A stretch of 64,000 nt of DNA from a virus (lineage: Duplodnaviria; Heunggongvirae; Uroviricota; Caudoviricetes). Shown in pieces: positions 39,616 through 58,263 of this stretch. The notes beneath the pieces are model-generated. The model was not told the origin of the DNA, made no database searches, and saw only the letters and a program-made list of their open reading frames with translations. The stretch lies in IMG/VR virus record IMGVR_UViG_3300032294_001260, one strand, 5' to 3'. The translations under genes were made by a program, and so were the position numbers. How positions within the stretch are numbered: the stretch's first letter is position 1; each line of letters begins with the position of its first letter.

Positions 39616-39644
39616 AAAAAAGAGGGGCTGTTTCCAGCCCCTCT
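39613..39644. terminator. Bidirectional rho-independent terminator hairpin (AGAGGGGCUG-UUUC-CAGCCCCUCU) between convergent genes; the U8 tract is on the minus-strand (gp32) side
   Basis: 10-bp GC-rich perfect stem at 39621-39644, flanked by A8 on the plus strand, which reads as U8 for the minus-strand transcript. Confidence 0.75.
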
Positions 39645-39688: not shown

Positions 39689-40585
39689 TTACTCAGCAGC
39701 CAACTTCTCGAAGAAGGACATGTCATCATCATCAACGGTGACTTCTTCAGCAGTGACCCTCTTAGCGGGAGCAGAGCGAACGGCGGGAGCGGGTGCTTCC
39801 TCATCGTCAACTCGCTTGGCTGTTGCACCAGCAACACCACCAGCGCCGAGAACCTTGTCCAACTTCGCCTTGAGTTCATCATAGGTCTTGAAGTTCTCGG
39901 GCTTCAAGAAATCCTTGAGTGAATAGGCAGACTTCCAGACCTTTTCGATCTTGTCATCGTCACCATCAAACAATGCAGACTGAGCGTCAAACTCAGACTT
40001 ATCATAGTTGCGATAGCCTTCGTAGTTGCGGATCTTCAACTTGAAGTTTGCACCTTTCCAGAAATCGAAAGGATTCATTGGCTTCTCATCCTCAAACTCT
40101 GGGGCGATCTTCGCGTTGATCTTTTCGTAGATCTTCTTACCATACTTGAACAAGAAAACCTTACCCTCATTATCTGGGCGCTTCGGATCAGAGACAACAA
40201 GAATATTGCTAATATACGCCAGACGACGCTTCTGCTTACGAGCGATTTCCTTGTTTGCTTCGATGCCGCTGTTCCAGAGCACAGAATTGTACTCAGAAAC
40301 TGGATCGTTCTTGCCGAGGGTAGTCAAAGAATTTTCGATATACCAACCACCTGGACCCTGAAACCCGTGATTCCAAATTTGGACCCACGGAAGCCCATCT
40401 TCACCGTCAACGGCTGGCGTATCGAGGAAACGGATGACTGCATAACCGTTACCAGATGCATCGACTTCGGGTGACCAAAAACGATCATCAACATTCTTAC
40501 CACCACCGTTACCAGAAGCGGCGGCGTCTACAGCCCTCTTCAACTTATCAAGGGATGAACCCTTCTTTAGATTACTTAGTGACAT
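39689..40585 (-). CDS. gp32: Single-stranded DNA-binding protein, T4 gp32 homologue
   Basis: 298-aa ORF. GNGYAVIRFL aligns with T4 GNGQAVIRFL. IWNHGF aligns with LVNHGF. AYISNILVVSDPKRPDNEGKVFLFKYGKKIYEKINAKIA aligns with [39 protein letters not shown]. Acidic C-terminal tail. Confidence 0.9.
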   Translation of the reverse strand: MSLSNLKKGSSLDKLKRAVDAAASGNGGGKNVDDRFWSPEVDASGNGYAVIRFLDTPAVDGEDGLPWVQIWNHGFQGPGGWYIENSLTTLGKNDPVSEYNSVLWNSGIEANKEIARKQKRRLAYISNILVVSDPKRPDNEGKVFLFKYGKKIYEKINAKIAPEFEDEKPMNPFDFWKGANFKLKIRNYEGYRNYDKSEFDAQSALFDGDDDKIEKVWKSAYSLKDFLKPENFKTYDELKAKLDKVLGAGGVAGATAKRVDDEEAPAPAVRSAPAKRVTAEEVTVDDDDMSFFEKLAAE

Positions 40586-40653: not shown

Positions 40654-41124
40654 CTATATAGCAGAATTCTTTGAAAGTAAAGTTTTATGTTTATTCTTGG
40701 TTCTAATATTACTTTCACGAATTTTTCTTTTTGTTTCCTCTGAATGTTTGCGCCCAATCCTACTTGCAGCCATATTTTTTCTTGCTTGCTCAGTCCTCAT
40801 AGCAACACTTATTCTTTTTCTTGTTTCTTCTGATTTAGGTATACCTTTAGTTGCTTCGCTCAGTTTTCTTTTGTGTTCTTCAGAAAGAACTGCGCCCTTT
40901 CTTCGTTTGTTTGATTCTATTCTTGCTTGCCTTGCAGCCTCAGCAAAAGTAATTTGACCACTCAATGTTTTCCACGCAAGTTTATCTTGCCAACGACCAT
41001 GTTCTTCGAACAACTTCCGATGTGCTTCGGCGTGTTCTTCGACTGTGAGTTCGATAAGATTAGATGGATCGTCTGTTCCTCCCATGTGGCGAGGGACGAT
41101 ATGATGCTTGTGATAAATAGACAT
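40654..41124 (-). CDS. HNH homing endonuclease with NUMOD-like repeats, inserted between gp32 and gp59
   Basis: 156-aa ORF. The HNH core is HHIVPRHMGGTDDPSNLIELTVEEHAEAH. Three NUMOD-like repeats are present (HKRKLSEATKG, EETRKRISVAM, EETKRKIRESN). Confidence 0.8.
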   Translation of the reverse strand: MSIYHKHHIVPRHMGGTDDPSNLIELTVEEHAEAHRKLFEEHGRWQDKLAWKTLSGQITFAEAARQARIESNKRRKGAVLSEEHKRKLSEATKGIPKSEETRKRISVAMRTEQARKNMAASRIGRKHSEETKRKIRESNIRTKNKHKTLLSKNSAI

Positions 41125-41187: not shown

Positions 41188-41195
41188 TATTTATA
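41188..41195 (-). promoter_or_regulatory. TATAAATA late-promoter-like motif (minus strand) 64 nt upstream of the HNH gene start
   Basis: The plus strand reads tatttata. Confidence 0.3.
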
Positions 41196-41787
41196 CATCC
41201 AGAAGAATTTTCTTGGTCAACTCCTTGTACTTTTTAGTGTCTACAGACAAAAACGCACCATACTTACGAATCTTTCTACTAATCTTTGGGTAGATGATGT
41301 CGTCTGAAATCTTCTTATCCCAAATTCTTATAAAGTCAAAAATATTGTTGAGTATCACCATTGTTTCGATGGTAATTTGCTTTTGCATAAAACACATCAA
41401 CAATCTCGGGAACTGTCCATCTTCAACTTTAAACAAACTGTTAAATTCTTTTGGATCTGGGCAGATCGTTTGTAGATCTTCCAGATAGATCTTGCTCATG
41501 GAATCTGTAATTCTTCTCCACTCTTTATATTTTTCCTCAGCACCCTCTTCAAGCAAATCTTTAGTCCAGCCGTGATCACCGTATACAAAATTAGCAACCA
41601 AAAATGGAACCATCTGATCATCGTTATATTTACGTGCAAGACGATGGAACAGAAACTTGTCACGGCGTTTTTCGAATGCGTCCACAGAGACGCGAGTTTT
41701 CCCGTCATATTGAAAGAAGTTGTATTTTTCATTGGTAAAGTGAAGTTTGATTGCTTGATATGTGCAGTACAAGTTATAGCCGTTCAT
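41191..41787 (-). CDS. gp59: Helicase loader, T4 gp59 homologue
   Basis: 198-aa ORF. YNLYCTYQAIKLHFTNEKYNFFQYDGKTRVSVDAFEKRRDKFLFHRLARKY aligns with T4 gp59 YKLYLMIKQHMNGKYDVIKYNWCMRVSDAAYQKRRDKYFFQKLSEKY. Confidence 0.8.
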   Translation of the reverse strand: MNGYNLYCTYQAIKLHFTNEKYNFFQYDGKTRVSVDAFEKRRDKFLFHRLARKYNDDQMVPFLVANFVYGDHGWTKDLLEEGAEEKYKEWRRITDSMSKIYLEDLQTICPDPKEFNSLFKVEDGQFPRLLMCFMQKQITIETMVILNNIFDFIRIWDKKISDDIIYPKISRKIRKYGAFLSVDTKKYKELTKKILLDV

Positions 41788-41788
41788 A

Positions 41789-41956
41789 TCACTCCGACTG
41801 TTTGGATTCTTCTTGCTTATACAACTTCATAGCATTATCAAATGTGGTAAGTAGCAGCGGTAAAAATAGCCAGAACATTGAAGCGTCTTTAACGTAAATC
41901 AAAAATCCCGTGAAAGACCAAACGAAGATGTTCCAAATTAATGCTTGCCAACTCAT
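41789..41956 (-). CDS. Small membrane protein (55 aa, 2 TM: [55 protein letters not shown])
   Basis: Hand-found ORF below the table cut-off. Its stop sits one nt before the gp59 ATG. Confidence 0.3.
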   Translation of the reverse strand: MSWQALIWNIFVWSFTGFLIYVKDASMFWLFLPLLLTTFDNAMKLYKQEESKQSE

Positions 41957-42189
41957 ATAGGGAGTTTATCCCCTCTAGGTAAAAATCTCATTTTCATGGC
42001 TTCACCTTCAATGATACTTTTGAGTGAGTCGTTGATAAGTGTTGCTGCCATCTCAACTTCAAGATTGTTGCGTTCACAATATGTTGTGACTGCATCTATG
42101 TGATCAATTTTTTCCTCGATGGCCATATTCATGATCATCATAGAAAATTGATTCTTTTCTTCGCGAGTTGTCTTCGATTTAGATTTCAT
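41953..42189 (-). CDS. Small hypothetical protein (the position corresponds to gp33 in the T4 33-59-32 cluster, but no sequence support)
   Basis: 78-aa ORF. Confidence 0.3.
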
Positions 42190-43222
42190 ATGCGTTCAAA
42201 CTGGTATTTAATTGTTGAGTGACACGAACAAACGTAGTTCGCTTTGGAAGTTCCTTGAGTTCAGACGCGCCAACATAAGTGCATGCCGAACGCAGCCCTC
42301 CCAGAATTTCTTGCATCGTATTTGCAACTGGACCTTTGTAGCGAAGTTTTACGTGCTTGCCTTCCGATGCACGGTAATTAGCAACTCCGCCATTATGCAA
42401 ATCCATGGCTGACTTAGAACTCATGCCATAGAAATCAACTAGGCTTTGCCCTTCTAGTGTGTCTGTATATCCAGCGGGCAATCCTTCCTTATGCCCAGCA
42501 AGCATTGATCCGAGCATCACAAAATCGGCACCAGCGGCGAATGCCTTCACCACATCCCCAGCCACCGTGCACCCACCATCAGCAATGATATGACCCTTGA
42601 GACCGTGAGCCGCATCAGCACACTCAATCACCGCGCTCAATTGTGGATAGCCGATTCCCGTCATCTTCCTAGTCGTGCACACCGCCCCTGGACCAATCCC
42701 AACCTTCACAATGTCAACACCAGCGAGGATCAGTTCTTCTGTCATTTCCGCCGTGACAACATTACCAGCAATAAGAATAACGCTGGGATATCGATCACGG
42801 AACTTCTTAATGAAGTCAACAAACGATTGCGTATATCCATTGGCGACATCAATGCAAACGCGCATCAATCGATTACCGACTACGCTATACACGTTGTCAA
42901 ACTTCTGCAAATCACATTCGCTGATACCCAAGGAGTAAATGGAACTTTCCAATTTCTTTGAAAAGTGTTCAATCAAATCAGTATCTTTTTGGTGCTTGGT
43001 GAGTGCAACCATACATCGATGCCTGTTCAATTCGGCATCCATATCAAAAGTGCCGACACCGTCCATATTGGCGGCAATGATTGGAACACCAAACCAAGAA
43101 TTGTAAGATCGGAAAGTAAACAACCTTTCAAGTTTCACTTCACTTCTAGATGACAACGAAGATCGCTTCGGTGTGATCAGAACGTCTTTATAGTCTAACT
43201 TCACATCATCTAGTATACGCAT
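42179..43222 (-). CDS. guaC: GMP reductase (NADPH-dependent, IMPDH/GMPR family)
   Basis: 347-aa ORF, collinear with E. coli GuaC along the full length. [103 protein letters not shown]...[41 protein letters not shown]...GPV.NT...[26 protein letters not shown]. Confidence 0.9.
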
Positions 43223-43228
43223 AAAACC

Positions 43229-43855
43229 TCAATGATAAAAAATATGGTTTCCAATTTGATTTACAACTCTCTTCTCAGTAGCCCATGCTGGGTTTACATA
43301 CGTCGCATGGAAATACTTTGCAGATCCAATTATACCGTAACTTTTCTTTGAAATCAAAATATTCTCGGCAATCTTGTACGATTCATTCCACACAGAACTC
43401 GGACGAATTGTATTCTTTCCTTGGCATACCCAAGAAAATTGACAAGTGTTTCGAGTCCGCTGATAGACAACACCACAAACGGTTCGCGGGAACTCTCTGC
43501 TCTTGACTCGATTCATCGTGACTTCAGCGACAGCGATTTTACCAGCACGAGATTCGGATCCCGCTTCAAAGTAAATGTTCTTTGCAAGACACTCAACTTC
43601 AGTGCGAACTTTGCGCTGCTGATCATAAGACAGATTTAAAAATTCAACTCGACGACTCATGTGATCCAATTGAGACGTTAGAACTTGATTAGTTCTAATC
43701 TGGGCTTCATACATTTCCATCGTTCTGCTGTAGATATTGAATGGGACATAAAGTCCAAAGAATATCATAGCGAACAGCCCGCCCCATAGGCAGAAAAAGT
43801 TGTGATTACGATTAAAAAAGTTTTCTACACTACGAAGTATGTCTACTGCATTCAT
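43229..43855 (-). CDS. Membrane-anchored SleB-type cell-wall hydrolase (Hydrolase_2 family)
   Basis: 208-aa ORF with an N-terminal TM helix (FFCLWGGLFAMIFFGLYVPF). The C-terminal domain is IAVAEVTMNRVKSREFPRTVCGVVYQ...CQFSWVCQG...YFHATYVNPAW, the SleB/CwlJ signature. Confidence 0.75.
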   Translation of the reverse strand: MNAVDILRSVENFFNRNHNFFCLWGGLFAMIFFGLYVPFNIYSRTMEMYEAQIRTNQVLTSQLDHMSRRVEFLNLSYDQQRKVRTEVECLAKNIYFEAGSESRAGKIAVAEVTMNRVKSREFPRTVCGVVYQRTRNTCQFSWVCQGKNTIRPSSVWNESYKIAENILISKKSYGIIGSAKYFHATYVNPAWATEKRVVNQIGNHIFYH

Positions 43856-43879: not shown

Positions 43880-43908
43880 AAAGAAAGGGTGGCGGACCAC
43901 CGCCACCC
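43880..43908 (-). terminator. Rho-independent terminator-like hairpin (GGGUGGCGG-ACCA-CCGCCACCC) followed by a U-rich tract on the minus-strand transcript
   Basis: 9-bp GC stem at 43887-43908. The downstream sequence on the minus strand is UUUCUUUCC, followed by the SD and ATG of the SleB gene. Confidence 0.5.
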
Positions 43909-43914
43909 CCAGGG

Positions 43915-44164: not shown

Positions 44165-44560
44165 TGTTGTTTGTGTTATGACAAATGGTGCGTTTATTCT
44201 GTTTCCAAGAAAACCCACCGAAAACTCAGGTATTCTAAATCGGCTTAAGCCGCAAGAGCCATGTCGTAAACATCATCGTTTGCGTTTACTTTGTTTGCGC
44301 GAATTACGTTCGTCGCCTTTCGGGTAGCCTTTGGTTTATTACTTGCCCTGTCGAAGCCAAATTCATCCCCGTCGGAAAGCCACCACGTACATTACTGCAG
44401 AGGTGGTGGGCATCTGATAATTTGGTGGAGATGTCGGGGGTCGAACCCGAGTCCAGAACACCTTTAGTCAAAGGTTGACTACCATTATTCCTTTATCCTA
44501 ATAGCGGGCGAGAGAAATCTCTTCGTTTAAGACTGGAGATTACAAGTTTCCAGTCCCCAT
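44165..44560 (-). ncRNA. ssrA: Circularly permuted (two-piece) tmRNA gene. Acceptor piece ~44560-44423, ending ...GGACUCGGGUUCGACCCCCGACAUCUCCACCA. Roughly 50-nt spacer. Coding piece starts at 44370 (GGGGAUGAAUUUGGCUUCGACAGGG...) and contains the tag ORF (resume GCA at 44283 or 44298 through UAA at 44247-44245), encoding (ANKVN)ANDDVYDMALAA. The 3' end of the coding piece is undetermined.
   Basis: Acceptor 3' strand CAUCUCC-A-CCA pairs with 5' GGGGAUG, including G3:U70 and A73 (AlaRS identity). The T-arm UCGGG-UUCGACC-CCCGA matches E. coli tmRNA GGACGCGGGUUCAACUCCCGCCAGCUCCACCA. The coding-piece head matches E. coli GGGGCUGAUUCUGGAUUCGACGGG. The tag ends in ALAA followed by UAA. The CCA-end piece precedes the GGGG 5' end, which is the gene order of permuted ssrA. 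Confidence 0.7.
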
Positions 44561-44749: not shown

Positions 44750-44986
44750 TTATTTAGCCTCGCACCGCGAGAACAAATAGCGTCGTGCCGTGCTCATTTC
44801 TAAGTTCGACAGGAAGCCGTCTCCGTTCTTATCAGCCTGTTTGAACAGGCTCTGAGAGACTGTGCAATACCGATTGATGTCTTCGAAAGATACCTTTCCA
44901 TCCTTATCAAAATCGTATTGTGAGACACGATCTTGAGCAAAGACGGGAGAGGCTGCTAGGGCGAGGGTCAAAATTAGTTTCTTCAT
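44750..44986 (-). CDS. Secreted EF-hand calcium-binding protein (signal peptide + two EF-hand loops)
   Basis: 78-aa ORF. Signal peptide MKKLILTLALAASPVFAQD. Loops DFDKDGKVSFED and DKNGDGFLSNLE match the 12-residue EF-hand consensus. Confidence 0.55.
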   Translation of the reverse strand: MKKLILTLALAASPVFAQDRVSQYDFDKDGKVSFEDINRYCTVSQSLFKQADKNGDGFLSNLEMSTARRYLFSRCEAK

Positions 44987-45108
44987 GTGTTGTTACCTTT
45001 AGTATAAAATTTGCGGAAAAAAATGTAAGATAGCCCAAAATGCCACAAACATCACAACGGGAACTAAAATCAACCCCCAGTCCCTAATAAAATCTAGAAT
45101 GTAGTTCT

Positions 45109-45687
45109 TCAAAGTGCGTTGCTCAGTGTCGCTTCGCCGATCTGGCGGTTGCATGCGCACAGTTCATTCGTCTGAAGTGCATCAAGAACACGCAGTGTCT
45201 CATCAGCATTGCGACCGACATTCAGATTGTTTACGGTCACGTGCTGAATGACATTATCTGGATCGACGATGAACGTTGCACGAAGTGCGGCACCATGCTG
45301 TAGGTCAAATGCTCCAAGTTGATCAACCAGCCCTACAGTCGTTTCTTCGTAGTATTCACTGCCGCGATGTGTATCAGCAAAGAACCAGCAAGTGGTCTTC
45401 TTCAAGCCCTCATGTACATTCTTCCAAGCCAACTTGCAAAACTCGTTGTCGGTCGAACCGATGAGTAGAACTGCATCACGATCAGTGAACTCCTTGTTCA
45501 ACTCGTCGTAGGCAAGAATTTCTGTGGGGCACACAAAAGTGAAGTCCTTCGGATAAAACACGAAGATCTTCCACTGTCCAAAAAATGATGTTTCATCGAT
45601 GGTTTCAAATGCATCGTCGGGTGTGAGGGCACCAGGCTTTACGCCAGTGATGGTAAATTTTGACAACTTATGTCCAACTGTTTTCAT
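45109..45687 (-). CDS. Peroxiredoxin, typical 2-Cys AhpC/TSA family
   Basis: Contains FFYPKDFTFVCPTE (peroxidatic Cys) and a C-terminal resolving Cys region. Collinear with E. coli AhpC. The start is taken at the internal ATG (45687) preceded by AAGGAG, not at the table start 45792. Confidence 0.85.
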   Translation of the reverse strand: MKTVGHKLSKFTITGVKPGALTPDDAFETIDETSFFGQWKIFVFYPKDFTFVCPTEILAYDELNKEFTDRDAVLLIGSTDNEFCKLAWKNVHEGLKKTTCWFFADTHRGSEYYEETTVGLVDQLGAFDLQHGAALRATFIVDPDNVIQHVTVNNLNVGRNADETLRVLDALQTNELCACNRQIGEATLSNAL

Positions 45688-45735
45688 AGTCAACTCCTTT
45701 TCGTTTAAACTCCATAAAAATTCTTCATACGTCAT

Positions 45736-45900
45736 ATCAAGCAACAATATTGTATTGTTCGCGGAGAATCTTCTTGTATGGTTTGCCTTCAACCATCAAC
45801 TGCTCAACCAACTTCAGTCGGTCGGCGATGTCTGCAACGCCAGCCTTCTCCAGAGCAACCACAATGATTCGAAGTTCATCAATAGTAATGGGCAGATCCA
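45736..45900 (-). CDS. Small hypothetical protein (54 aa, MDLPITIDELRIIVVALEKAGVADIADRLKLVEQLMVEGKPYKKILREQYNIVA)
   Basis: Hand-found ORF with SD GAGGTG. It replaces the spurious N-terminal extension of the peroxiredoxin ORF. Confidence 0.3.
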
Positions 45901-45940
45901 TAATTCACCTCACACGACACATTATTACAAACATTATAAA

Positions 45941-46648
45941 TCAATTTGTTTTAAGAATCAACGACTTTCTCTTATACAGATCAATATAATACAGATCAAT
46001 ATATTTGATCAGTTCATTTTTATGGTGTATTAGATCGGCACCTTCCGTGATAAATTTTTGAACGGGGTGATGACCCTCAACACCAATTAATAGAATAGTC
46101 TTCTTAGCGAGCATGCCCGTCATTTCATGGAACATCTCGCGATATGCAACCGTCTGCATGAAATAGTTGCCAATATTTTCTGGATTTTTTATTTTATTTG
46201 AAGACTTCAAATCGAATACTGTTAGAACACCATCATACTCGGCGATGAAGTCTGCTGTACCCGCAATTTGCAGTTCATGGGAAAACAGTGCCCGCTCACT
46301 GCAATAAATGTTATTGACATGTAAATCTAGTTCTTTCTTAATTTTAAAGAACATAGATTTCACATTGGGCATCATTTCTATGTTTGAAATGTCTTCGTTA
46401 TTTAAATACATTTCAACAATCTTGTGAAGAATTGCTCCCCTTTTCGCGGCCATCCTTGATATTTTATTGGCTTCATCCTCACCAACGCGCTTTCTCCACT
46501 CTAGGATTTCTTTCCTATTGTATTCGGCAAGGATTGTGGTGACCGATGGATACTTTTTACCATTCGGTGTCAAGTAAGTTCTATGACCACCCTTTGAGTC
46601 TTCTCGAATCAACTCGGGTAAAACTGTCGGAACATGATTGAATTTCAT
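45941..46648 (-). CDS. PD-(D/E)XK nuclease superfamily protein (RecB/Cas4/YqaJ-like exonuclease motif GTADFIAEYDGVLTVFDLKSS)
   Basis: 235-aa ORF. Motifs II/III (D...E.K) are recognisable. Confidence 0.55.
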   Translation of the reverse strand: MKFNHVPTVLPELIREDSKGGHRTYLTPNGKKYPSVTTILAEYNRKEILEWRKRVGEDEANKISRMAAKRGAILHKIVEMYLNNEDISNIEMMPNVKSMFFKIKKELDLHVNNIYCSERALFSHELQIAGTADFIAEYDGVLTVFDLKSSNKIKNPENIGNYFMQTVAYREMFHEMTGMLAKKTILLIGVEGHHPVQKFITEGADLIHHKNELIKYIDLYYIDLYKRKSLILKTN

Positions 46649-46714
46649 AATAACCAGAAAGTAAATATCACTGACGAAGCCACATACTAATTATACAGAC
46701 GAGTCAAGTAAAAG

Positions 46715-47500
46715 TCAAGTTTTTTCCGATGCGGGTATCAAAACACCATCGCCATCTTTTGATCCATTTTCGTATTTTTCTGTGGCTATCAAAAAATCTT
46801 TGACCAGACTTGATCTCACGATATCCTCAGTTGTGAATTCTATATTTGTGAATGATGGCATCAGTTTAGCGATTTTGTGAAATTTCCAAAGCCCAGACTT
46901 GTCCTTGTTATTGCGGTACAGATCAGTTTGCTTGTAGTCGCCGCAGAAGATGATTTTTGAACGATATCCGACACGAGTCATGATCGTTGATAATTCTTCG
47001 AATGTCATATTTTGACACTCATCGACGATGATCACCGCATCGTCGAAACTCATTCCACGGATAAAACTGGTCGAGATGAATTCGATTCGCCCACACTCTT
47101 TTAATGCTTCGTAAGCATCGCGTCTAGCAAACAATGTATGGTAAATCTGCATGTATGGCTGTTCATACAGGCTCATTTTTTCCTCAACCGACCCTGGCGT
47201 AAACCCCAGATCGCGAGATTGGACTGCTGAACGGACAATCACCACTCTATGAAATGATGATGATTTGTCTAATACTTCTTCGATTGCTTTGTAACAAGCA
47301 ATGAACGACTTACCCGTTCCCGCTGAACCGCAAAGCATAACGAAGTAATCGCCCCTTGTATATGACTCAAAAAACTTTGCTTGGTTTGTCGTTAATGGTT
47401 CAAACTTCTTCAGTTCTGAAGCCTTAATTCTTTGAGGCTTTTTCTCTGAAGTCCCCTCACTAAATTCAATAACAGTGTTAGAATTTTTTTTCTTCGACAA
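46715..47500 (-). CDS. phoH: PhoH-like ATPase (phosphate-starvation-inducible protein family)
   Basis: 261-aa ORF. Walker A is GSAGTGKSF. The conserved PhoH blocks (IIVDECQNMT, IIFCGDYKQTD) are present. Confidence 0.85.
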   Translation of the reverse strand: MSKKKNSNTVIEFSEGTSEKKPQRIKASELKKFEPLTTNQAKFFESYTRGDYFVMLCGSAGTGKSFIACYKAIEEVLDKSSSFHRVVIVRSAVQSRDLGFTPGSVEEKMSLYEQPYMQIYHTLFARRDAYEALKECGRIEFISTSFIRGMSFDDAVIIVDECQNMTFEELSTIMTRVGYRSKIIFCGDYKQTDLYRNNKDKSGLWKFHKIAKLMPSFTNIEFTTEDIVRSSLVKDFLIATEKYENGSKDGDGVLIPASEKT

Positions 47501-50080: not shown

Positions 50081-50716
50081 TTACGCGGCATTCTTCACAG
50101 TCTTATCGGTGAGATACCGAGTTGTGAAAGTTCGAAGATCGTGATCAGCGTTCAGTCGCGCCTCCTTCTCGATCTCATCAATCGGGGCAACCTCGGGGTT
50201 GATTACTTCACAGTTCCGTGCCCAGACCCACACAATGTTCTTGTGTGTCGGATACTGCTTGCCGTTCGGCGCGGTGTAGGTGGTCATTTCATCGTCGAGG
50301 GCGATGCCGAGTTTCGGTTCAATCGAAGCGCGATAACCCATACCATATGCGCGACGGATCACGACGACAACCTTACCTTCGGTGCCCTTGGCAGTCCTGC
50401 CGCGCACAACCTTTACCGTGCGACCATTGATCGCGGGATCCTTCGCGGTCGAATTGAACGCGCTAGTCATTTCCTCGACCCGACGATTGTACATGAAGTT
50501 GTGATACCGCTGCAATGCAGCCTCATCAATATCAATGGTCACTTCCTCGTTGTCCCAGAGCAAATCTCTGGCGATTGCACCGCGCTCGTTGATCGAATAT
50601 GCAACGCGACAATACTCCCAGATATCCGACATAACCTGAACCGACTCCGATTGCACCATGTAGGTGGAGTTGACGTTCTCGATGCGGTTTTCGTTCATTC
50701 TGCTACGCTTGATCAT
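50081..50716 (-). CDS. Hypothetical protein
   Basis: 211-aa ORF. It is the first gene downstream of early-promoter cassette copy 0. Confidence 0.4.
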   Translation of the reverse strand: MIKRSRMNENRIENVNSTYMVQSESVQVMSDIWEYCRVAYSINERGAIARDLLWDNEEVTIDIDEAALQRYHNFMYNRRVEEMTSAFNSTAKDPAINGRTVKVVRGRTAKGTEGKVVVVIRRAYGMGYRASIEPKLGIALDDEMTTYTAPNGKQYPTHKNIVWVWARNCEVINPEVAPIDEIEKEARLNADHDLRTFTTRYLTDKTVKNAA

Positions 50717-50740
50717 TTTAATGAATCTCCAGAGGTATTA

Positions 50741-50828
50741 ACTGTTTATCAACCCTATAAGAATATTCTACTTAAAATTTAAAAAAGAATCAATAGGAAA
50801 AATTTACACGAAATCAACGACTTACGCG
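50741..50828 (-). promoter_or_regulatory. Early-promoter cassette copy 0 (sigma70-like TTGATT-17-TAGAAT + conserved ATTCTTATAGGG leader)
   Basis: Member of a roughly 75-nt repeat family (see findings). Confidence 0.5.
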
Positions 50829-51134
50829 CTAGCGGGACAGCATCGCCTTTCGCGCCACCGTCCACTCTTCTTCTTCGCCGACGCGGCAAATTGCATCAGC
50901 CGATGCGCGATCTTGGACCGCTGAGTCTTTTGCCTCCAGAGCCGCCCAGACTAATGTTGCCGCCGCCGTCGCAAATGTCGCGGCATCCGTGTCATATGCC
51001 GCTTTTGCGGCACTCAATGCGGCGGGTGCTGATCGCAAAGTGCACATCTGTTCCCAAGCGGGACCGTAACCACCAGCATCAGCAAAGGTCTGGTGTTGCT
51101 CAAGACGAGTCCACATTTTGCTCAAGGTAGTCAT
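50829..51134 (-). CDS. Paralogue 1 of the GC/Ala-rich small-protein family (MW.RL.QHQ.FAD..GYG.AW..MC..R)
   Basis: 101-aa ORF with the conserved N-terminal motif MTTLSKMWTRLEQHQTFADAGGYGPAWEQMC. Confidence 0.55.
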   Translation of the reverse strand: MTTLSKMWTRLEQHQTFADAGGYGPAWEQMCTLRSAPAALSAAKAAYDTDAATFATAAATLVWAALEAKDSAVQDRASADAICRVGEEEEWTVARKAMLSR

Positions 51135-51142
51135 TAGATTAT

Positions 51143-51245
51143 CCCCGTGTCGATCACTATAAGAGTATTATGATCTAATATCGGGCAAATGTAAAGGTGA
51201 AAAATCTTAATGGAATCAAAGACTTACGATGTTCCCGAAGTTTGT
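51143..51245 (-). promoter_or_regulatory. Early-promoter cassette copy 1 (TTTACA-17-CATAAT, diverged) plus upstream terminator-like hairpin CCCGAA-ACAAAC-UUCGGG
   Basis: Shares cactataaga(g/a)tatta and gaaatcaa..acttac with the other copies. Confidence 0.4.
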
Positions 51246-51275
51246 TTCGGGAACATCTATTAGGGGTAACAAGAA

Positions 51276-51623
51276 TTAGTCAAGCCTCGAACCAGCATAG
51301 GCTTCGATGCCCGCATTACGGAGAACATCAGCATATGCACGAGCATAGGCTTCCTTGCGAGTAATGCTCTGGCCACCTTCACTAACCCAGACGCAAAGAC
51401 CGCTAGGATAGTTTTTGCTTGCAACGCCAGCCTTCTTTGCCCAGCGACCCCAAGCGGTGTTACCTTGGAATTCGATCCACGCGAAACCACAGGCACCCTC
51501 GGCGACAAACCACTGCTGTCCGCCGCGCTCGCTGACCACCATCGGGGTTGGAACGGCGGCGACGAGTGCACGCATACCAGCGTTGTGAGCAGCATCATGA
51601 AGGGAACAAAAATCAAAACTCAT
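51276..51623 (-). CDS. Hypothetical protein (Trp/Gly-rich)
   Basis: 115-aa ORF. Preferred over the overlapping 51260..51616 frame because it looks more protein-like. Confidence 0.4.
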   Translation of the reverse strand: MSFDFCSLHDAAHNAGMRALVAAVPTPMVVSERGGQQWFVAEGACGFAWIEFQGNTAWGRWAKKAGVASKNYPSGLCVWVSEGGQSITRKEAYARAYADVLRNAGIEAYAGSRLD

Positions 51624-51655
51624 ATAGTTTTCCTCACGAAATAAAATAATGAGAA

Positions 51656-51910
51656 TTAAACGCGAAAGTGATCATAATTCCGAATCTTGCTGTTTCGGTT
51701 TGTGGTGTATTCCACAAACTCGACAGACTTACCAGCATTACGCAACGCAGTGATAAGCAACTGCGCATCGAGATCTTCTTCGAGGAAGACCCGATCTTTT
51801 CGCTGATAAGAATAAGAAGAAATGCTGTTCAGATCCACATATTTCTCAAGAGTCTTGCGGCTCACAGAAAGCCAGCCGTGGCCAGGGTCTGAGTAGAAAT
51901 ACAGTTTCAT
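51656..51910 (-). CDS. Hypothetical small protein (MKLYFYSDPGHGWLSVSRKTLEKYV...)
   Basis: ATG at 51910, preceded by AAGGAACGAACT from the cassette. The table ORF starts at an upstream GTG that lies inside the cassette. Confidence 0.45.
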   Translation of the reverse strand: MKLYFYSDPGHGWLSVSRKTLEKYVDLNSISSYSYQRKDRVFLEEDLDAQLLITALRNAGKSVEFVEYTTNRNSKIRNYDHFRV

Positions 51911-51927
51911 AGTTCGTTCCTTGTTAA

Positions 51928-52005
51928 TCACTATAAGAATATTATGCCTAATTCTTGCTAAAAACGCAACAGGAAAAACTCTAATGAAATCAACTACTTA
52001 CGAGA
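51928..52005 (-). promoter_or_regulatory. Early-promoter cassette copy 2 (TTGCGT-17-CATAAT)
   Basis: taatcactataagaatattatgcctaattcttgctaaaaacgcaacaggaaaaactctaatgaaatcaactacttac. Confidence 0.5.
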
Positions 52006-52201
52006 ATGAAAGACGCTGGCGTTCGCCAATTTTCCAAACAGCAGCAACTTCATCGTAGTCCAAACGCAATGGAAGAGAGTTTTTATCGGCGGCGACCCAT
52101 GTCATTTTATGGGGGCTAACCTCGTATCTCGTCACTTCAAAATCCATAGTATAGCCGCTTTTGAAAACGACTCGCAACTTGAATACAGTTTCGAATGTCA
52201 T
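51998..52201 (-). CDS. Small hypothetical protein (67 aa, MTFETVFKLRVVFKSGYTMDFEVTRYEVSPHKMTWVAADKNSLPLRLDYDEVAAVWKIGERQRLSFS)
   Basis: C-terminal in-frame part of table ORF 51998..52414, starting at the internal ATG. The ATG overlaps the stop of paralogue 2 (TAATG). Confidence 0.45.
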   Translation of the reverse strand: MTFETVFKLRVVFKSGYTMDFEVTRYEVSPHKMTWVAADKNSLPLRLDYDEVAAVWKIGERQRLSFS

Positions 52202-52491
52202 TAGATCCTCTCCGCTTTGTTGATGCGGTTGATCACATACGCTGCCATCTGCTCCGCAACCTCCGCCGCCGACGTCGCCGTCCCCGTCGCCGAAACGACC
52301 TGTACGACCCTCGCAGCCCACTCCGCCCATGCCGCATCCGCCCCCACAACCTCCGCCGAATACGCCGCCGCCTTCGCCGCCTCTGGTGTGCGCTCCTTGC
52401 ACATGGTCTTCCAAGCATCACCATAGCCGCGTTCGTCTGCAAAGGACTGATGCTGCTCAAGACGCGCCCACATCTTTTTAAGGTCACTCAC
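52201..52491 (-). CDS. Paralogue 2 of the GC/Ala-rich family
   Basis: MSDLKKMWARLEQHQSFADERGYGDAWKTMCKERT... with Ala-rich centre and the ...INKAERI C-terminus. Confidence 0.55.
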   Translation of the reverse strand: MSDLKKMWARLEQHQSFADERGYGDAWKTMCKERTPEAAKAAAYSAEVVGADAAWAEWAARVVQVVSATGTATSAAEVAEQMAAYVINRINKAERI

Positions 52492-52763
52492 GGCTTTATC
52501 TCCCTCATCGTGTCGATGGCGAGTTCGCTATATTGGTCAACCCTCGCCGCAGCAGCCGCCACCGCAGCCCTCGCTTCTGCCGCAGCCCTCGCAAACCACG
52601 CCGCTTCCGACGCCTCGAACGCGCCCGCCGCAGCCGCTGCCTGCCATGCCTCCCACGCAGTATCAGCCGTTCGCTTTCGGCACATTTTGCGCCACGCTTT
52701 AGCGTACTTGGACTTCGGCTTGTGCGCTTCCAGCACCGCCCACATTGTGTCAAGATTAGTCAT
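52488..52763 (-). CDS. Paralogue 3 of the GC/Ala-rich family
   Basis: Internal ATG of table ORF 52488..52970: MTNLDTMWAVLEAHKPKSKYAKAWRKMCRKRT.... TAATG overlap with paralogue 4. Confidence 0.5.
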   Translation of the reverse strand: MTNLDTMWAVLEAHKPKSKYAKAWRKMCRKRTADTAWEAWQAAAAAGAFEASEAAWFARAAAEARAAVAAAAARVDQYSELAIDTMREIKP

Positions 52764-53047
52764 TAGATGTTCTCCGCTTTGTTGATGAAACAAATCGCTT
52801 CCGCCGCCGAATACGCCGCCGATGCCGCAGCCCTCGCCGCCCACGCCGCATTCGCCGCATACGCCGCACCCGCCGCCCACGCCTCCCTCGCCTCCTCCCA
52901 CGCCTCCCTCGCCTCCCTCGCCGCCGCCTCCGCTGCCTTTGGTGTGCGCTCTTCGCACATCCGCTTCCATTTCTTTCCATAGCCGCGCTCATCTGCGATC
53001 GGCTGGTGTTCTGCGAGACGAATCCACATTGTGTCAAGATTAGTCAT
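52763..53047 (-). CDS. Paralogue 4 of the GC/Ala-rich family
   Basis: MTNLDTMWIRLAEHQPIADERGYGKKWKRMCEERT...AAEAICFINKAENI. Confidence 0.55.
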   Translation of the reverse strand: MTNLDTMWIRLAEHQPIADERGYGKKWKRMCEERTPKAAEAAAREAREAWEEAREAWAAGAAYAANAAWAARAAASAAYSAAEAICFINKAENI

Positions 53048-53349
53048 TAGATGTTCTCCGCTTTGTTGATGTACCAGATCGCGTCTTCTGCATACTCAAC
53101 CAGAGACCCCGTTGTCGCAGCCCACGCCATCATCGCCGCATCCGCAGCCGAGCGCAACCTAGCCTTCTGCGCTGATGCCCCAGCCCACGCCGCATCCAAC
53201 GCTGCGGCTTTTAACGTCGCTCCCGCAATTGTTGCTACATCTGGTGTGCGCTCTTGGCACATTGTGCGCCAAACATCGCCGTAACCACCAGCATCGGCAA
53301 AGGACTGATGCTGCGCGAGACGAGTCCACATTTCGTTAAGGTTTGTCAT
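53047..53349 (-). CDS. Paralogue 5 of the GC/Ala-rich family
   Basis: MTNLNEMWTRLAQHQSFADAGGYGDVWRTMCQERT...AIWYINKAENI. The start is taken at the ATG behind the cassette SD. TAATG overlap with paralogue 4. Confidence 0.55.
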   Translation of the reverse strand: MTNLNEMWTRLAQHQSFADAGGYGDVWRTMCQERTPDVATIAGATLKAAALDAAWAGASAQKARLRSAADAAMMAWAATTGSLVEYAEDAIWYINKAENI

Positions 53350-53356
53350 TGTTAGT

Positions 53357-53436
53357 TCCTTGTTAATCACTATAAGAATATAGTGCCTAATTCTTACTAA
53401 AAACGCAACAAGAAAAACTCTAATGAAATCAATGAC
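53357..53436 (-). promoter_or_regulatory. Early-promoter cassette copy 3
   Basis: taatcactataagaatatagtgcctaattcttactaaaacgcaacaagaaaaactctaatgaaatcaatgacttag. Confidence 0.5.
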
Positions 53437-53811
53437 TTAGACAATCCCGAGTTTTGCATTCATCTCGTTGATTTCTTCTGGGGTGGCGATCTTCAATGCG
53501 CTAGGTCGCTGCTGCTTGATTCGCAACATCCGCTGAGATCCAGCCTTAAGGCGCTTGGCTTCTGCCTTGGCAGCACGCGCAGCCGCTTTTTCAGCACGCT
53601 TCGCCTCACGCGCTGCCTTCACAGCCGCACGATGATCTTCCTTCACGATGCGATCTATCCGCGTCTCGCGGCGAATCTCGGCGCGGAGAGCACTCTGCAT
53701 CTGTCGCGACACCTTAATCGCCTCGCGAGTCGCCTTTATGGCACCGATCATATCCTTCACAACCTGACGCTCACGAGCCAGATTCGCCTTCATTTCGTTA
53801 AGACTACTCAT
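53437..53811 (-). CDS. Basic coiled-coil protein (Lys/Arg/Ala-rich, histone H1-like composition)
   Basis: 124-aa ORF. RAAVKAAREAKRAEKAAARAAKAEAKRLKAG. Confidence 0.45.
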   Translation of the reverse strand: MSSLNEMKANLARERQVVKDMIGAIKATREAIKVSRQMQSALRAEIRRETRIDRIVKEDHRAAVKAAREAKRAEKAAARAAKAEAKRLKAGSQRMLRIKQQRPSALKIATPEEINEMNAKLGIV

Positions 53812-54116
53812 GGCTTTACCACTGTGATCGCGTCGATGGCGCGTTGAGCGTCGTAGTCAGTCATCGCCGCCTTGACTGTCGCATCCGCCGCAAAAGTCGC
53901 CGCCCGATTCGCCCACGACGCCTCCGCCGCAACCTTCCCAGCCTTCGCCGAATACGCCGCGTTCGCTGCAACCATCGCCGCATCCGCCGCAGCCCTCCCC
54001 GCTTTAACGGTGCGCTCCTTGCACATTGTTTTCCACGCATCTCCATAGCCTCGCCTGTCTGCGATAGGCTGATGTTGCGCAAGATGGTTCCACATTTCGT
54101 TTACAGTAAGACCCAT
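53808..54116 (-). CDS. Paralogue 6 of the GC/Ala-rich family
   Basis: MGLTVNEMWNHLAQHQPIADRRGYGDAWKTMCKERT.... Confidence 0.55.
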   Translation of the reverse strand: MGLTVNEMWNHLAQHQPIADRRGYGDAWKTMCKERTVKAGRAAADAAMVAANAAYSAKAGKVAAEASWANRAATFAADATVKAAMTDYDAQRAIDAITVVKP

Positions 54117-54127
54117 AAAATTCTCCT

Positions 54128-54358
54128 TTAAAAGTTACGAAGATTGAACTGCCCACGAGTGGTCAGTTCCATGATAACATTAGCCATTTTGACAATCATC
54201 TCATCCTTGTTCTCGACACCACGAACCTTGTTGTCGATACCAAGTTCGCCACCAAATACCTCAACAAAATCAAAAGTGCTGTGGGCACTTTGGCGACCGA
54301 TCTTGATGACCTGTTTTGTAGCAGTGTTCATTTTAGAAATCATCCTAGAAATCCTCAT
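54128..54358 (-). CDS. Hypothetical small protein
   Basis: 76-aa ORF downstream of cassette copy 4. Confidence 0.4.
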   Translation of the reverse strand: MRISRMISKMNTATKQVIKIGRQSAHSTFDFVEVFGGELGIDNKVRGVENKDEMIVKMANVIMELTTRGQFNLRNF

Positions 54359-54389
54359 TTACTACAGAGAGAGCATTTCCCCATCCGAT

Positions 54390-54465
54390 AAGACAATTAT
54401 GCTTGAAACGATTGAAAAACGCAATAGTAAAAACTCTAATGAAATCAACTACTTACACGTGCCCG
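54390..54465 (-). promoter_or_regulatory. Early-promoter cassette copy 4 (TTGCGT-17-CATAAT)
   Basis: gataagacaattatgcttgaaacgattgaaaaacgcaatagtaaaaactctaatgaaatcaactacttac. Confidence 0.5.
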
Positions 54466-54699
54466 TTTCGGGCGCGGTCGAATGAGAGACATCGCGTAGC
54501 GGATGTCATTTTCGTTTCCCACCGACTTGCTGCCGCAGTCGTACCCCTCAAACCAATACTCATCGCACAAGTGTAGGAACACGCGACCGTCATCCATGCC
54601 CGCTCCCTCAATCTCATCGATGCGCGGGTCGGCTGCGACTTTTACGAGCGCTCGCATCGGCGAGAAACCATTGGCGTCGGTGATCTTGGCGCGGCTCAT
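54445..54699 (-). CDS. Hypothetical protein
   Basis: 84-aa ORF. Confidence 0.4.
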   Translation of the reverse strand: MSRAKITDANGFSPMRALVKVAADPRIDEIEGAGMDDGRVFLHLCDEYWFEGYDCGSKSVGNENDIRYAMSLIRPRPKRARVSS

Positions 54700-55031
54700 G
54701 CCGCATTCCGCTGCTGTTGTGCGGCACCCGACTCGATCTCGGCGAGGGCTGCGTCAATCAGCCCATCACCGACGCGCTCAAGGTCGCGCTCCAGTGACCA
54801 ACGACGGTACTCAAAGTCTTGAATCCCCGCCCTATTGGCAAGGGCATTCAGCCGCATGACGTTCGGCCTGTCACCGTTATTATAAAAACGGTAATACAAG
54901 TTCATGAACCTACGATAGTTTTCAAGGGCGGGCGTGTTGCAAGAACCCATGAAAGGAATGTACAACTGGACCGAATTGGTCTCCGCTTCGCGCCGTCCGT
55001 TCCAGAGAGTTTCAAGATTGTTGATGTTCAT
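54696..55031 (-). CDS. Hypothetical protein
   Basis: 111-aa ORF downstream of cassette copy 5 (SD AGGAGA). Confidence 0.4.
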   Translation of the reverse strand: MNINNLETLWNGRREAETNSVQLYIPFMGSCNTPALENYRRFMNLYYRFYNNGDRPNVMRLNALANRAGIQDFEYRRWSLERDLERVGDGLIDAALAEIESGAAQQQRNAA

Positions 55032-55225: not shown

Positions 55226-55438
55226 TCAGTTTTCGCTTGAATAAGTTATTTTCCACTGTTTCTGAACAGATGTTTGGACGAACGTCCTAGTGGAAGGGTC
55301 AGCACCGAAGTCGCGAACGTATACGGTCTTGCCGCCGTCGGGACTTTCATAAATTTTAGCAGGTCTGTCTACTTCAATGTGCTGACCGTCGCTGGATGCT
55401 TTACAGACTGCTGCTTCTGTGTAAAAAATCGTGTTCAC
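55226..55438 (-). CDS. Hypothetical small protein
   Basis: 70-aa ORF, ATGA-coupled to the glutaredoxin gene. Confidence 0.4.
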   Translation of the reverse strand: MNTIFYTEAAVCKASSDGQHIEVDRPAKIYESPDGGKTVYVRDFGADPSTRTFVQTSVQKQWKITYSSEN

Positions 55439-55665
55439 TGATTCACTCCAAAGTGTTTCACGAGATCATCGTGTCCGCCGATGTATTCACCGTCGAGAAA
55501 AATCTGCGGCACGGTGCGAGCAAGGGGAACGGACTCAAGAAGTTGATCCTTTGTGTACCCGAACCCGATGACTCTTTCTTCGATCTCGTATCCTTTGTTA
55601 CGAAGAAGAACTTTTGCTTTAACACAATACGGACAAGACTCTTTAGACCAAACAATTGCTTTCAT
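55435..55665 (-). CDS. nrdC: Glutaredoxin (CPYC active site), T4 NrdC-like
   Basis: 76-aa ORF MKAIVWSKESCPYCVKAKVLL...TVPQIFLDGEYIGG. The redox motif and the glutaredoxin fold pattern are classic. SD TAGGAGAAATC. Confidence 0.8.
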   Translation of the reverse strand: MKAIVWSKESCPYCVKAKVLLRNKGYEIEERVIGFGYTKDQLLESVPLARTVPQIFLDGEYIGGHDDLVKHFGVNQ

Positions 55666-55687
55666 GATTTCTCCTAAAGATATGAAT

Positions 55688-55761
55688 TGGTAGCGGGGGA
55701 TGGAATTGCACCACCGACCCTCGGATTATGAGTCCGATGTTCTGCTACTGAACTACCCCGC
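55688..55761 (-). tRNA. tRNA with anticodon CAU (Met or Ile2/lysidine type); 6-bp GC acceptor stem, unusual T-loop UGCAAUU
   Basis: Hand-folded. D-arm GUUC/GAAC. Anticodon arm UCGGA-CUCAUAA-UCCGA. T-stem GGUGG/CCAUC. Ends ...CCCCCGCUACCA. Confidence 0.5.
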
Positions 55762-55865
55762 AATTTTATTCTTTTGCTGCTTTTTCTTCCCGAAGATGCG
55801 TTCCCAGTTCTCATCAAACTGTTTTCTGGGAACACTCAGCGGTCTAGGCTTACTACCCTTTCCGC

Positions 55866-56438
55866 TCACGCCGCTTTCCTCCAGACTCGACTGGTCTTTG
55901 GAATGCTTGCCTTCAAGAATTCCATTTGGTCCGCAAGAACCTTTCGATTCTTCAAAAGAATTCTTTCATGCACTGTTGGTGCATACGGAACATAGAGCAG
56001 ATGCATCTTTGCTTCTTCTGGTGTCTTCCAGCCCTTACGATGATTGCACACACGGCATGCAGTCACACAGTTTGACCAGTAATTCTTACCGCCGCGTGAC
56101 TTTGGCAGCACGTGATCGATGGTCAATTGGCTAGTGTTGAATTCATCACCACAATATGCGCAGATGTACTGATCGCGGGCATACAGCGTCATACGATCAG
56201 CGAACACAGTCTGTGTGTTGTAAAACTTGTCGCCAAGAATAGGACCACTCACACCGATGATTGACGAAATGTCAATCCGTGATTGTTCTCCATACTGGTT
56301 GTATCCACCCAGCATGGTCTTCAATTTTTCGCCGAGTTCCCAAACGACCTTTTCCTTTGCGTAATAGCAAGCAGCGATTTCAAAATCGCACCAGTCTTTT
56401 GGAGCACCACCCTTGTCTACAACCAATACCAATGACAC
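55866..56438 (-). CDS. HNH endonuclease (McrA-like; DHVLPKSRGG...NCVTACRVCNHRKG), GTG start
   Basis: 190-aa ORF. SD AAGGAG sits 9 nt upstream of the GTG. It is preceded by TATAAATA (56469-56476, minus strand). Confidence 0.7.
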   Translation of the reverse strand: MSLVLVVDKGGAPKDWCDFEIAACYYAKEKVVWELGEKLKTMLGGYNQYGEQSRIDISSIIGVSGPILGDKFYNTQTVFADRMTLYARDQYICAYCGDEFNTSQLTIDHVLPKSRGGKNYWSNCVTACRVCNHRKGWKTPEEAKMHLLYVPYAPTVHERILLKNRKVLADQMEFLKASIPKTSRVWRKAA

Positions 56439-56468
56439 GACACAATCTCCTTCAATTTAACATCACAA

Positions 56469-56476
56469 TATTTATA
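56469..56476 (-). promoter_or_regulatory. TATAAATA late-promoter-like motif upstream of the HNH gene
   Basis: The plus strand reads tatttata. Confidence 0.35.
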
Positions 56477-56510
56477 TTATAAATCTAAATTTATTAAAAA
56501 TCAAGCAATA

Positions 56511-57641: not shown

Positions 57642-57699
57642 TTGAAGGCACCTTTAGTTAAGGGGATGAGTATTTTATATTTATGTTTTTCCCGTTTTA

Positions 57700-57936
57700 T
57701 CAGAAAGATATGGCCAAAACGGTCAGTTGTTTGGACGCAGTTTGGCCTTCTCCGATATAGAGACTTTCTGGAGAATTCCACTGGGTAGGTGACGCTTGGA
57801 CGTTGTTTTCTTTTAAAAATTTGATCAAATCGTCTACTTTTTCGGATTCCACCGAAATGTAGGCTTCGCTTAGATTGACTGCGCTGATCTGATCAATTAG
57901 ATCTAAAACGTTCTGATATTCCATAATATACTCCAA
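57700..57936 (-). CDS. Hypothetical protein
   Basis: 78-aa ORF. Confidence 0.35.
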   Translation of the reverse strand: MEYIMEYQNVLDLIDQISAVNLSEAYISVESEKVDDLIKFLKENNVQASPTQWNSPESLYIGEGQTASKQLTVLAISF

Positions 57937-57939
57937 GAA

Positions 57940-58263
57940 CTATTGAATATGGTTGTATTTAGCATATTCCTTTGTCATGTATATTTGGAGCGCGTCCAGC
58001 AATTTTACAATTCTATGTCTTTGATTGTTGCCCGTTAGTTCTAGTGTTTCATTCCTTAGAGTACCGAGAATTAATAGAACATCTCGGCCAGAAATTTGCT
58101 GTTTTCTTATTTGTGTGAGCAAATTTCTATATGCTCGGGCTTGAGGATAGACTTTTTCGTTGGGGACTCCAGATGAGGACGCCCCCCTATTCTCTAAGGC
58201 ATCACATAGCATGTCTATGTGAGGTTGTAAGTCTTCGAATTTGAATTTTTTTGTTTCTGTCAT
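57940..58263 (-). CDS. Hypothetical protein (start taken at the internal ATG 58263, because the table start 58302 lies inside tRNA-Arg)
   Basis: MTETKKFKFEDLQPHIDMLCDALENRG.... Confidence 0.4.
   Translation of the reverse strand: MTETKKFKFEDLQPHIDMLCDALENRGASSSGVPNEKVYPQARAYRNLLTQIRKQQISGRDVLLILGTLRNETLELTGNNQRHRIVKLLDALQIYMTKEYAKYNHIQ

Follow-up and report, generated by a model that had tools for sequence, protein, structure and literature searches.

Why should a T4-like phage carry an enzyme that returns guanylate to inosine monophosphate (IMP)? The question is raised by a 64,000-nucleotide stretch of viral DNA (IMG/VR record IMGVR_UViG_3300032294_001260, Caudoviricetes), which we refer to as the window. 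In it, an open reading frame (ORF) at positions 42179..43222 of the minus strand starts with ATG and specifies a protein of 347 residues that resembles guanosine monophosphate (GMP) reductase, GuaC. To our knowledge, GMP reductase is the sole route from guanylate back to IMP, and hence to adenylate via PurA and PurB. Conversion of pyrimidine pools by phage dCMP deaminases and thymidylate synthases is textbook matter, whereas little attention has been paid to how phages interconvert purines. Phage GMP reductases have already been annotated in several genomes, and PHROGs holds a family for them (phrog_9582). What we add here is that guaC is fixed, syntenic and under strong constraint throughout a large clade of uncultured phages. 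The explanation that we favour, with moderate confidence, is that this guaC encodes a functional enzyme, acquired once and inherited vertically, that would move guanylate towards adenylate during infection.

Identity and active site of the guaC product

Is the product a GMP reductase (GMPR), or could it be an IMP dehydrogenase (IMPDH; GuaB-like, without CBS domains) or another barrel of the IMPDH/GMPR/FMN-oxidoreductase kind that catalyzes a different reaction? Broad families leave room for the latter. PF00478, matched by residues 9-336 (E 8.8e-71) as the sole IMPDH/GMPR barrel domain that Pfam finds in the protein, spans both enzymes; there is a weak secondary Pfam match to FMN_dh, and the PHROGs label of the family reads merely 'dehydrogenase'. 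The narrower models separate the two. NF003470, the NCBIfam equivalog for GMP reductase, covers residues 1-343 of 347 and clears its cutoff of 397 with 509.8 bits. The IMPDH equivalogs of NCBIfam reach 100-202 bits on the same protein, against cutoffs of 481-779; one of them, TIGR01302, stops at 201.9 bits (cutoff 481.5) and aligns to residues 109-325 only. The Pfam scan detected no CBS (Bateman) domain in the protein. Among solved structures, the closest match is human GMPR1 (2ble, E 2.7e-123), followed by GMPR2 (2a7r, 2bzn), with E values from 1e-123 to 1e-117 and about 60% identity to the window protein. In bit scores, GMPR1/2 attain 392-414 and the best IMPDH at most 192.5 (E 9e-56), a margin of about 220 bits. 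Salmonella GuaC, likewise of 347 residues, is collinear from end to end at 58% identity. The water-activating Arg-Tyr flap of IMPDH is presumably missing from the window protein.

With the GMPR model passed, the IMPDH models failed, CBS domains absent and GMPR structures far closer, an IMPDH identity is effectively ruled out, and we give practically no credence to any other barrel enzyme. By its sequence, the ORF can be assigned securely to the class-1, NADPH-dependent GMP reductases (GuaC; EC 1.7.1.7). A preliminary description of this DNA had proposed a full-length and apparently intact GuaC at 42179-43222. Its boundaries are exact, and the proposal is borne out by the model scores and the alignment to Salmonella GuaC.

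Are the residues needed for catalysis retained? In an alignment with Salmonella GuaC and related phage proteins (the phage clade, described below), C182, T184 and E287 are the equivalents of Cys186, Thr188 and Glu289 of the E. coli enzyme. All three are present, and they are invariant in 120 of 120 phage-clade proteins. Mutation of the E. coli residues compromises activity in a complementation assay (PMC2525682). Every one of the 74 columns that are invariant among 62 cellular class-1 GuaC is kept in the window protein, a further point against an IMPDH, and 71 of the 74 are kept throughout a sample of 37 phage-clade proteins. By these alignments, the catalytic apparatus of the phage enzyme is intact. 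The window protein also shares with cellular GuaC (E. coli and Salmonella; human GMPR1 and GMPR2; 2ble, 2a7r, 2bzn, 2c6q) a length of about 345 residues and, as judged by sequence match, the single (beta/alpha)8 barrel without CBS domains.

In sequence, it departs from them in two respects. Three residues fixed in the phage clade (D, F and E) occur in none of the 62 sampled cellular GuaC. In addition, the active-site loop, which starts at residue 175, has Ala in place of the Ser of GIGPGSVCTTR (E. coli Ser184); the preliminary description had quoted the latter string, which is the E. coli version. This phage is alone among the 120 clade proteins in having Ala at this position. The same residue is found in four of the 62 cellular GuaC and in phage XacN1, and the variant was seen again in independent assemblies of the same phage. 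The exchange of Ser for Ala thus appears to be tolerated. The C-terminal motif that had been named alongside the loop is present and begins at residue 308.

Gene neighbourhood, spread and origin of guaC

Does guaC belong to the phage, and for how long has it done so? The gene is surrounded by the following elements, listed in the direction of transcription.

44236..44530, minus strand: permuted (two-piece) transfer-messenger RNA (tmRNA) of betaproteobacterial type (ARAGORN; RF01850, 108.5 bits; RF04321, 138.9 bits)
43885..43910, minus strand: terminator-like hairpin 5' of the Hydrolase_2 gene (11 pairs, 8 of them G-C; consensus match only)
43229..43855, minus strand: Hydrolase_2 (SleB-like) cell-wall hydrolase (PF07486, E 4.7e-27; PHROG endolysin families; hydrophobic N-terminal segment)
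43227..43230, minus strand: Shine-Dalgarno-like GAGG, 4 nucleotides (nt) 5' of the guaC ATG and overlapping the Hydrolase_2 stop codon (read from the sequence)
41953..42189, minus strand: gp33 late-transcription coactivator (PF16805, E 1.3e-14; phrog_254)
41789..41956, minus strand: small conserved ORF of 55 residues between gp33 and gp59 (tblastn matches in many related loci; a called gene in L087)
41191..41787, minus strand: gp59 helicase loader (PF08993, PF08994; phrog_269)
40654..41124, minus strand: HNH/NUMOD3 homing endonuclease between gp59 and gp32 (NUMOD3 and HNH domains; phrog_655)
39689..40585, minus strand: gp32 single-stranded DNA-binding protein, which closes the block (PF08804; phrog_224)
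39621..39644, minus strand: terminator-like hairpin (10 pairs) with a T-run directly 3' of gp32 (consensus match only)

Read 5' to 3' on the minus strand, the order begins with PhoH, a PD-(D/E)XK exonuclease, an AhpC/TSA peroxiredoxin, an EF-hand protein, the permuted tmRNA, an ORF of 77 residues and the first hairpin. It continues with Hydrolase_2, guaC, gp33, the 55-residue ORF, gp59, HNH/NUMOD3, gp32 and the second hairpin. Viral hallmark genes thus lie on both sides of guaC, and T4-type baseplate and tail genes are found nearby in the window; that the gene is phage-encoded, as first described, is established by this setting. The same account had placed guaC between a SleB-like hydrolase and genes 59/32. 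The hydrolase side is correct and so is the order of the block, but gp33 and the 55-residue ORF had been left out before gene 59, and an endonuclease gene separates gp59 from gp32. Residence in the gp33-gp59-gp32 block of a T4-like lytic phage also sets this guaC apart from its cellular counterparts.

The Hydrolase_2 gene ends 6 nt before guaC, and the first 11 nt of gp33 are shared with the end of guaC. The overlap suggests co-transcription and translational coupling of guaC with gp33, and because of the two junctions together guaC is probably co-transcribed with Hydrolase_2, gp33, gp59 and gp32. In T4, genes 33, 59 and 32 are pre-late genes. By gene spacing and the T4 paradigm, guaC would be expressed in the replication phase. 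The T4 late-promoter motif TATAAATA occurs six times in the window and in no case upstream of guaC or the Hydrolase_2 gene. Possibly the hairpins at 43885..43910 and 39621..39644 mark the 5' and 3' boundaries of the unit from Hydrolase_2 through guaC and gp33 to gp32. The former lies about 30 nt 5' of the Hydrolase_2 start codon, so that there is scant space for a promoter; it could be a terminator that is leaky, or serve in processing or stabilizing the RNA that holds the tmRNA and the 77-residue ORF.

Which phage is this? A megablast search with positions 41000-45000 against 50,697 phage records returned no match, and hence the phage has no close cultured relative there. Its gp32 is 54-56% identical to gp32 of Prochlorococcus and Synechococcus myophages and of the Methylophilales phage Melnitz (55-56% for P-SSM2, P-SSM5 and Melnitz); because of this identity, we place the phage, on sequence, in the branch of T4-like phages that comprises cyanomyophages, pelagimyophages and Melnitz. 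In Melnitz, gp33 has a two-piece tmRNA as its direct upstream neighbour (PMC9004378). Here, Hydrolase_2 and guaC fill the space between the two, and the tmRNA is of betaproteobacterial type, whereas the one that Melnitz-type phages have in the corresponding position is of alphaproteobacterial type.

Uncultured relatives are numerous. At least 544 viral contigs in IMG/VR encode GuaC proteins 75-84% identical to that of the window, and more than 120 proteins from metagenomes, 76-84% identical, were retrieved from a large protein database. The setting of the gene does not vary: gp33 is directly downstream of guaC in all 86 loci fetched, Hydrolase_2 directly upstream in 76 of 76, and gp59 with gp32 follow guaC-gp33 in 52 of 52. 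The same arrangement, with T4-type baseplate and tail genes beyond gp32, was found in every context examined, including those of the most deeply branching clade members (P0059, P0100). An HNH endonuclease between gp59 and gp32 was found in none of the 52 related loci that span the interval; because of this absence, the HNH/NUMOD3 gene is probably a recent mobile insertion specific to this phage.

Might guaC nonetheless be host DNA joined to the contig by misassembly, or a recent passenger already in decay, and not a working phage gene at all? The nearest annotated homologues are indeed cellular, and the phage collection offers no close relative. Against this stand at least four independently assembled contigs that carry the identical GuaC protein, the perfect synteny over 86 viral loci, and a monophyletic clade with phage-like composition, strong purifying selection and an intact frame, as detailed below. 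Host contaminant and decaying passenger are ruled out by synteny, independent assemblies, phylogeny, composition and selection, and we regard either as next to impossible. Over hundreds of viral contigs, guaC is a fixed and constrained gene and not a sporadic passenger.

From where was the gene obtained? In a neighbour-joining tree (Kimura distances, 106 sequences, 338 columns, 100 bootstraps; a distance-based and not a maximum-likelihood tree), the phage GuaC proteins form a monophyletic clade with 100% bootstrap support. Alpha- and betaproteobacterial GuaC are its sisters (77% support), and the enzymes of Salmonella, Cr30 and XacN1 fall outside. The nearest cellular GuaC in a scan of 185,579 species genomes are 61-64% identical and belong to Sulfuritalea and other Rhodocyclales; members of the phage clade are considerably more alike than this. 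The scan used exact query peptide patterns (8-mers), and a closer donor without those 8-mers could be missed. The gene has 45.6% GC (44% at third codon positions), close to the 43.3% of the window, as against 61-64% for the Sulfuritalea genes and 63-66% for the Rhodocyclales loci that hold the nearest cellular GuaC. Because monophyly, lower cellular identity and phage-like composition coincide, the sequences indicate one old acquisition from Proteobacteria in the ancestor of the clade, followed by vertical inheritance and compositional amelioration.

Selection on the protein is strong. Pairwise rates of nonsynonymous substitution (dN) are 0.09-0.20 at saturated synonymous sites, far below the synonymous rate (dS). 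The ratio dN/dS is about 0.08-0.13 for the pairs in which it could be computed; for most pairs it could not (pS at least 0.66), and we use only the qualitative statement that dN is much smaller than dS, which makes purifying selection evident from the sequences. Across phage pairs, GuaC is 76-89% identical, more than Hydrolase_2 (48-79%) and gp33 (70-88%), about the same as gp59 and slightly less than gp32. The constraint on guaC equals that on core replication genes.

How does this compare with phages already in culture? The preliminary description had called such genes uncommon in T4-like phages. For isolates this is accurate: among the matches listed (60 of 79 records, out of the 50,697 phage records), class-1 GuaC is found in the cultured phages Cr30, XacN1, Xoo-sp13 and RAS14, and of these Cr30 is the sole T4-like isolate. 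For the uncultured clade, in which the gene is fixed, it does not apply. Caulobacter phage Cr30 (KF301602, AGS80910) likewise has an annotated class-1 GMP reductase in a T4-like myophage genome, but its protein is 40% identical to that of the window, has the loop GIGPGGQCLTR and branches outside the clade, and its gene is flanked by RNA ligase and hypothetical genes and not by gp33. Over 95% of the length, the window protein shares 47% identity with the annotated GMP reductases of Xanthomonas phages XacN1 and Xoo-sp13 and Stenotrophomonas phage RAS14. These belong to another phage group, jumbo phages of 300-385 kb, and have other gene contexts. Of the three, XacN1 alone was aligned; it too has Ala in its loop (GIGPGAMCTTR), and it lies on a separate branch. 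The data indicate that the guaC genes of Cr30 and of the jumbo phages were acquired independently. A deep-ocean pelagimyophage genome is reported, in a one-line mention, to have a GMP reductase as an auxiliary gene unique to it (PMC7029224, Zaragoza-Solas et al. 2020). By that description it shares the annotation and the T4-like pelagimyophage/cyanomyophage branch with our phage, but it is a single marine genome; in the clade studied here, which has betaproteobacterial features, the gene is universal. An association of this clade with fresh water is suggested by the tmRNA type, a GOLLD RNA (see below) and the origin of the nearest bacterial genomes.

A proposed role in purine rebalancing, and its rivals

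What would such an enzyme do for the phage? GuaC would catalyze GMP + NADPH + 2H+ -> IMP + NADP+ + NH4+, with a covalent intermediate formed on Cys182 and with the assistance of Thr184 and Glu287. The GMP would be guanylate from the host GTP pool and from RNA turnover. IMP would be taken to adenosine monophosphate (AMP) by the host enzymes PurA and PurB, and AMP would pass towards dATP via ribonucleotide reductase. The purine pool would thereby shift from G to A, which would suit a phage genome of about 43% GC. A phage whose genome is poorer in G+C than host nucleic acids would profit from converting surplus G into A. T4-type phages already turn C into T by means of dCMP deaminase and thymidylate synthase, and GuaC would be the purine counterpart of these enzymes. 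A shift of pools from G+C to A+T has been proposed or is known for T4 dCMP deaminase (cd) and thymidylate synthase and for cyanophage MazG; these belong to unrelated families that act on pyrimidines or deoxynucleotides, and the likeness is one of mechanism only. On biochemical grounds, purine rebalancing from G to A is a plausible role for the phage enzyme. If it is true, a purine branch joins the known means by which phages fit host pools to their own composition; no current view would be overturned. The gene could also serve as a marker for the clade in lake viromes.

Which host would make such a shift worthwhile? The tmRNA, about 1 kb upstream of guaC and with an ARAGORN-predicted tag ANDDVYDMALAA, is a possible clue: a permuted betaproteobacterial tmRNA is present in all 12 related loci considered (L001, L091, L094, L095, L102, L105, L107, L128, L131, L134, L139, L148). 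We take Dechloromonas and other Rhodocyclales to be carriers of the betaproteobacterial two-piece form. When the tmRNA region was compared with phage records by blastn, nothing matched, and no clue to the host was obtained. The betaproteobacterial type of the tmRNA, together with the 63-66% GC of the Rhodocyclales loci that hold the nearest cellular GuaC, makes a GC-rich betaproteobacterial host plausible.

One may go further, and we do so tentatively, since we doubt the following proposition more than we believe it. GuaC might be the purine arm of a GC-to-AT conversion strategy in a very abundant, uncultured, freshwater T4-like clade of about 43% GC. Its hosts would be GC-rich Betaproteobacteria; Rhodocyclales of about 63-66% GC, Sulfuritalea among them, are an example. 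Host RNA and GTP would oversupply G and undersupply A, so that GuaC would be needed for a normal burst size, and the fixation of its gene beside gp33, gp59 and gp32 would reflect co-regulation with replication. More speculative still is a variant in which GuaC has broadened its substrate to dGMP, permitting direct reuse of host DNA.

Several observations weigh against the favoured explanation. At the level of the enzyme, TIGR01305 (GMP_reduct_1) scores 475.4 bits, slightly below its trusted cutoff of 492.15, and the loop Ser that the window protein lacks is presumably a contact to the substrate phosphate in GMPR and IMPDH structures, so that Ala could lower affinity. The substrate of GMPR is the ribonucleotide GMP, and dGMP from host DNA is therefore not directly recycled. 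The phage itself is only moderately AT-biased. An AT-rich genome had been invoked when the gene was first described; at 43.3% GC the window is not markedly AT-rich, a motive for G-to-A conversion needs a GC-rich host, and the difference in GC between host and phage is a conjecture. Companion genes are likewise missing: purA, purB, nrd, cd and thyX were found neither in the 64-kb window nor in the roughly 10 kb beyond its left end that the search reached (the contig ends at the right end of the window), and mazG is absent from the same 10 kb and from the scanned ORFs of 47.8-60.8 kb. The remaining steps from G to A would have to come from the host or from genes elsewhere in the genome. As to expression, a sigma-70 promoter scan of 39.5-47.7 kb gave 18 sites where 17.6 are expected by chance, and a strong hairpin lies directly 5' of Hydrolase_2, so that the proposed boundaries and timing of the unit are tentative. 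Finally, a literature search yielded only annotation-level mentions of phage GMP reductases and no experimental work on their function.

Could a true GMP reductase be kept for other reasons? It might drain guanylate and so damp GTP-dependent processes of the host, as a means of shut-off or counter-defence, with the (p)ppGpp stringent response, c-di-GMP signalling, cGAMP-type defence signalling and host translation as targets. All evidence on enzyme identity fits this equally well; guaC lies among early-type genes of replication and transcription and near candidates for host manipulation (tmRNA, PhoH, peroxiredoxin), and the moderate AT bias of the phage weakens the motive for pool rebalancing. 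Yet translation of the phage's own proteins requires GTP, about 21% of the bases in its DNA require dGTP, no conserved defence or signalling partner adjoins guaC, and the argument is wholly by analogy, with no support found in the literature. We consider such a drain unlikely. The benefit could also lie in the by-products, namely ammonium in nitrogen-poor water or the oxidation of NADPH to NADP+ as a redox reset. Both are given by the established stoichiometry of GMPR, and redox genes are near: an AhpC/TSA peroxiredoxin in the window, CMD/AhpD-like and 2OG-Fe(II) oxygenase genes in relatives. Melnitz-type relatives, moreover, have their tmRNA under a glutamine (nitrogen-status) riboswitch (PMC9004378). 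However, little nitrogen is gained when each GMP yields one NH4+, guaC has no linked gene for nitrogen assimilation, and the window has no glutamine riboswitch at the Rfam gathering score. The redox genes lie 5' of the tmRNA and of the hairpin at 43885..43910, outside the Hydrolase_2-guaC unit, and vary among relatives. A by-product function seems very improbable to us, and purine rebalancing from G to A is the role that we favour for the phage enzyme.

Other features of the window

Upstream of the tmRNA, a conserved module at 44750..47500 on the minus strand comprises PhoH, the PD-(D/E)XK exonuclease, the AhpC/TSA peroxiredoxin and a secreted-looking EF-hand protein. The module is also seen in L001 and L002. 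Relatives have, in addition, the CMD/AhpD-like and 2OG-Fe(II) oxygenase genes; the window is without them.

A high-GC island with a strongly negative GC skew extends over 50200..55000 and peaks at 52200..53000; it reaches 62-64% GC, whereas the genome has 43%. The small minus-strand ORFs that fill it have essentially no Pfam or PHROG matches (one weak PHROG match), and a blastn search against a plasmid collection gave no match. The island may be recently acquired foreign or host-like DNA.

Towards the right end of the window, 15 tRNA genes are interspersed with ORFs on the minus strand (55688..63594). The tRNA-Ile gene (anticodon tat) at 60771..60862 is unusually long with 92 nt and might contain an insertion or an intron. 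The tRNA array ends in one further structured RNA.

63196..63660, minus strand: full-length GOLLD RNA (RF02032, 218 bits against a gathering score of 150; model positions 1-416)

This RNA encloses the tRNA-Lys gene at 63523..63594, the end of the array. Accessory genes are scattered among the tRNAs on the minus strand (55435..56438, 58709..59350, 60117..60797 and 61623..62426) and encode a glutaredoxin, a second HNH endonuclease, a NUMOD3 ORF, a Band_7/SPFH protein and a BTLCP protein, the last of which is a transglutaminase-like cysteine protease (Peptidase_C93).

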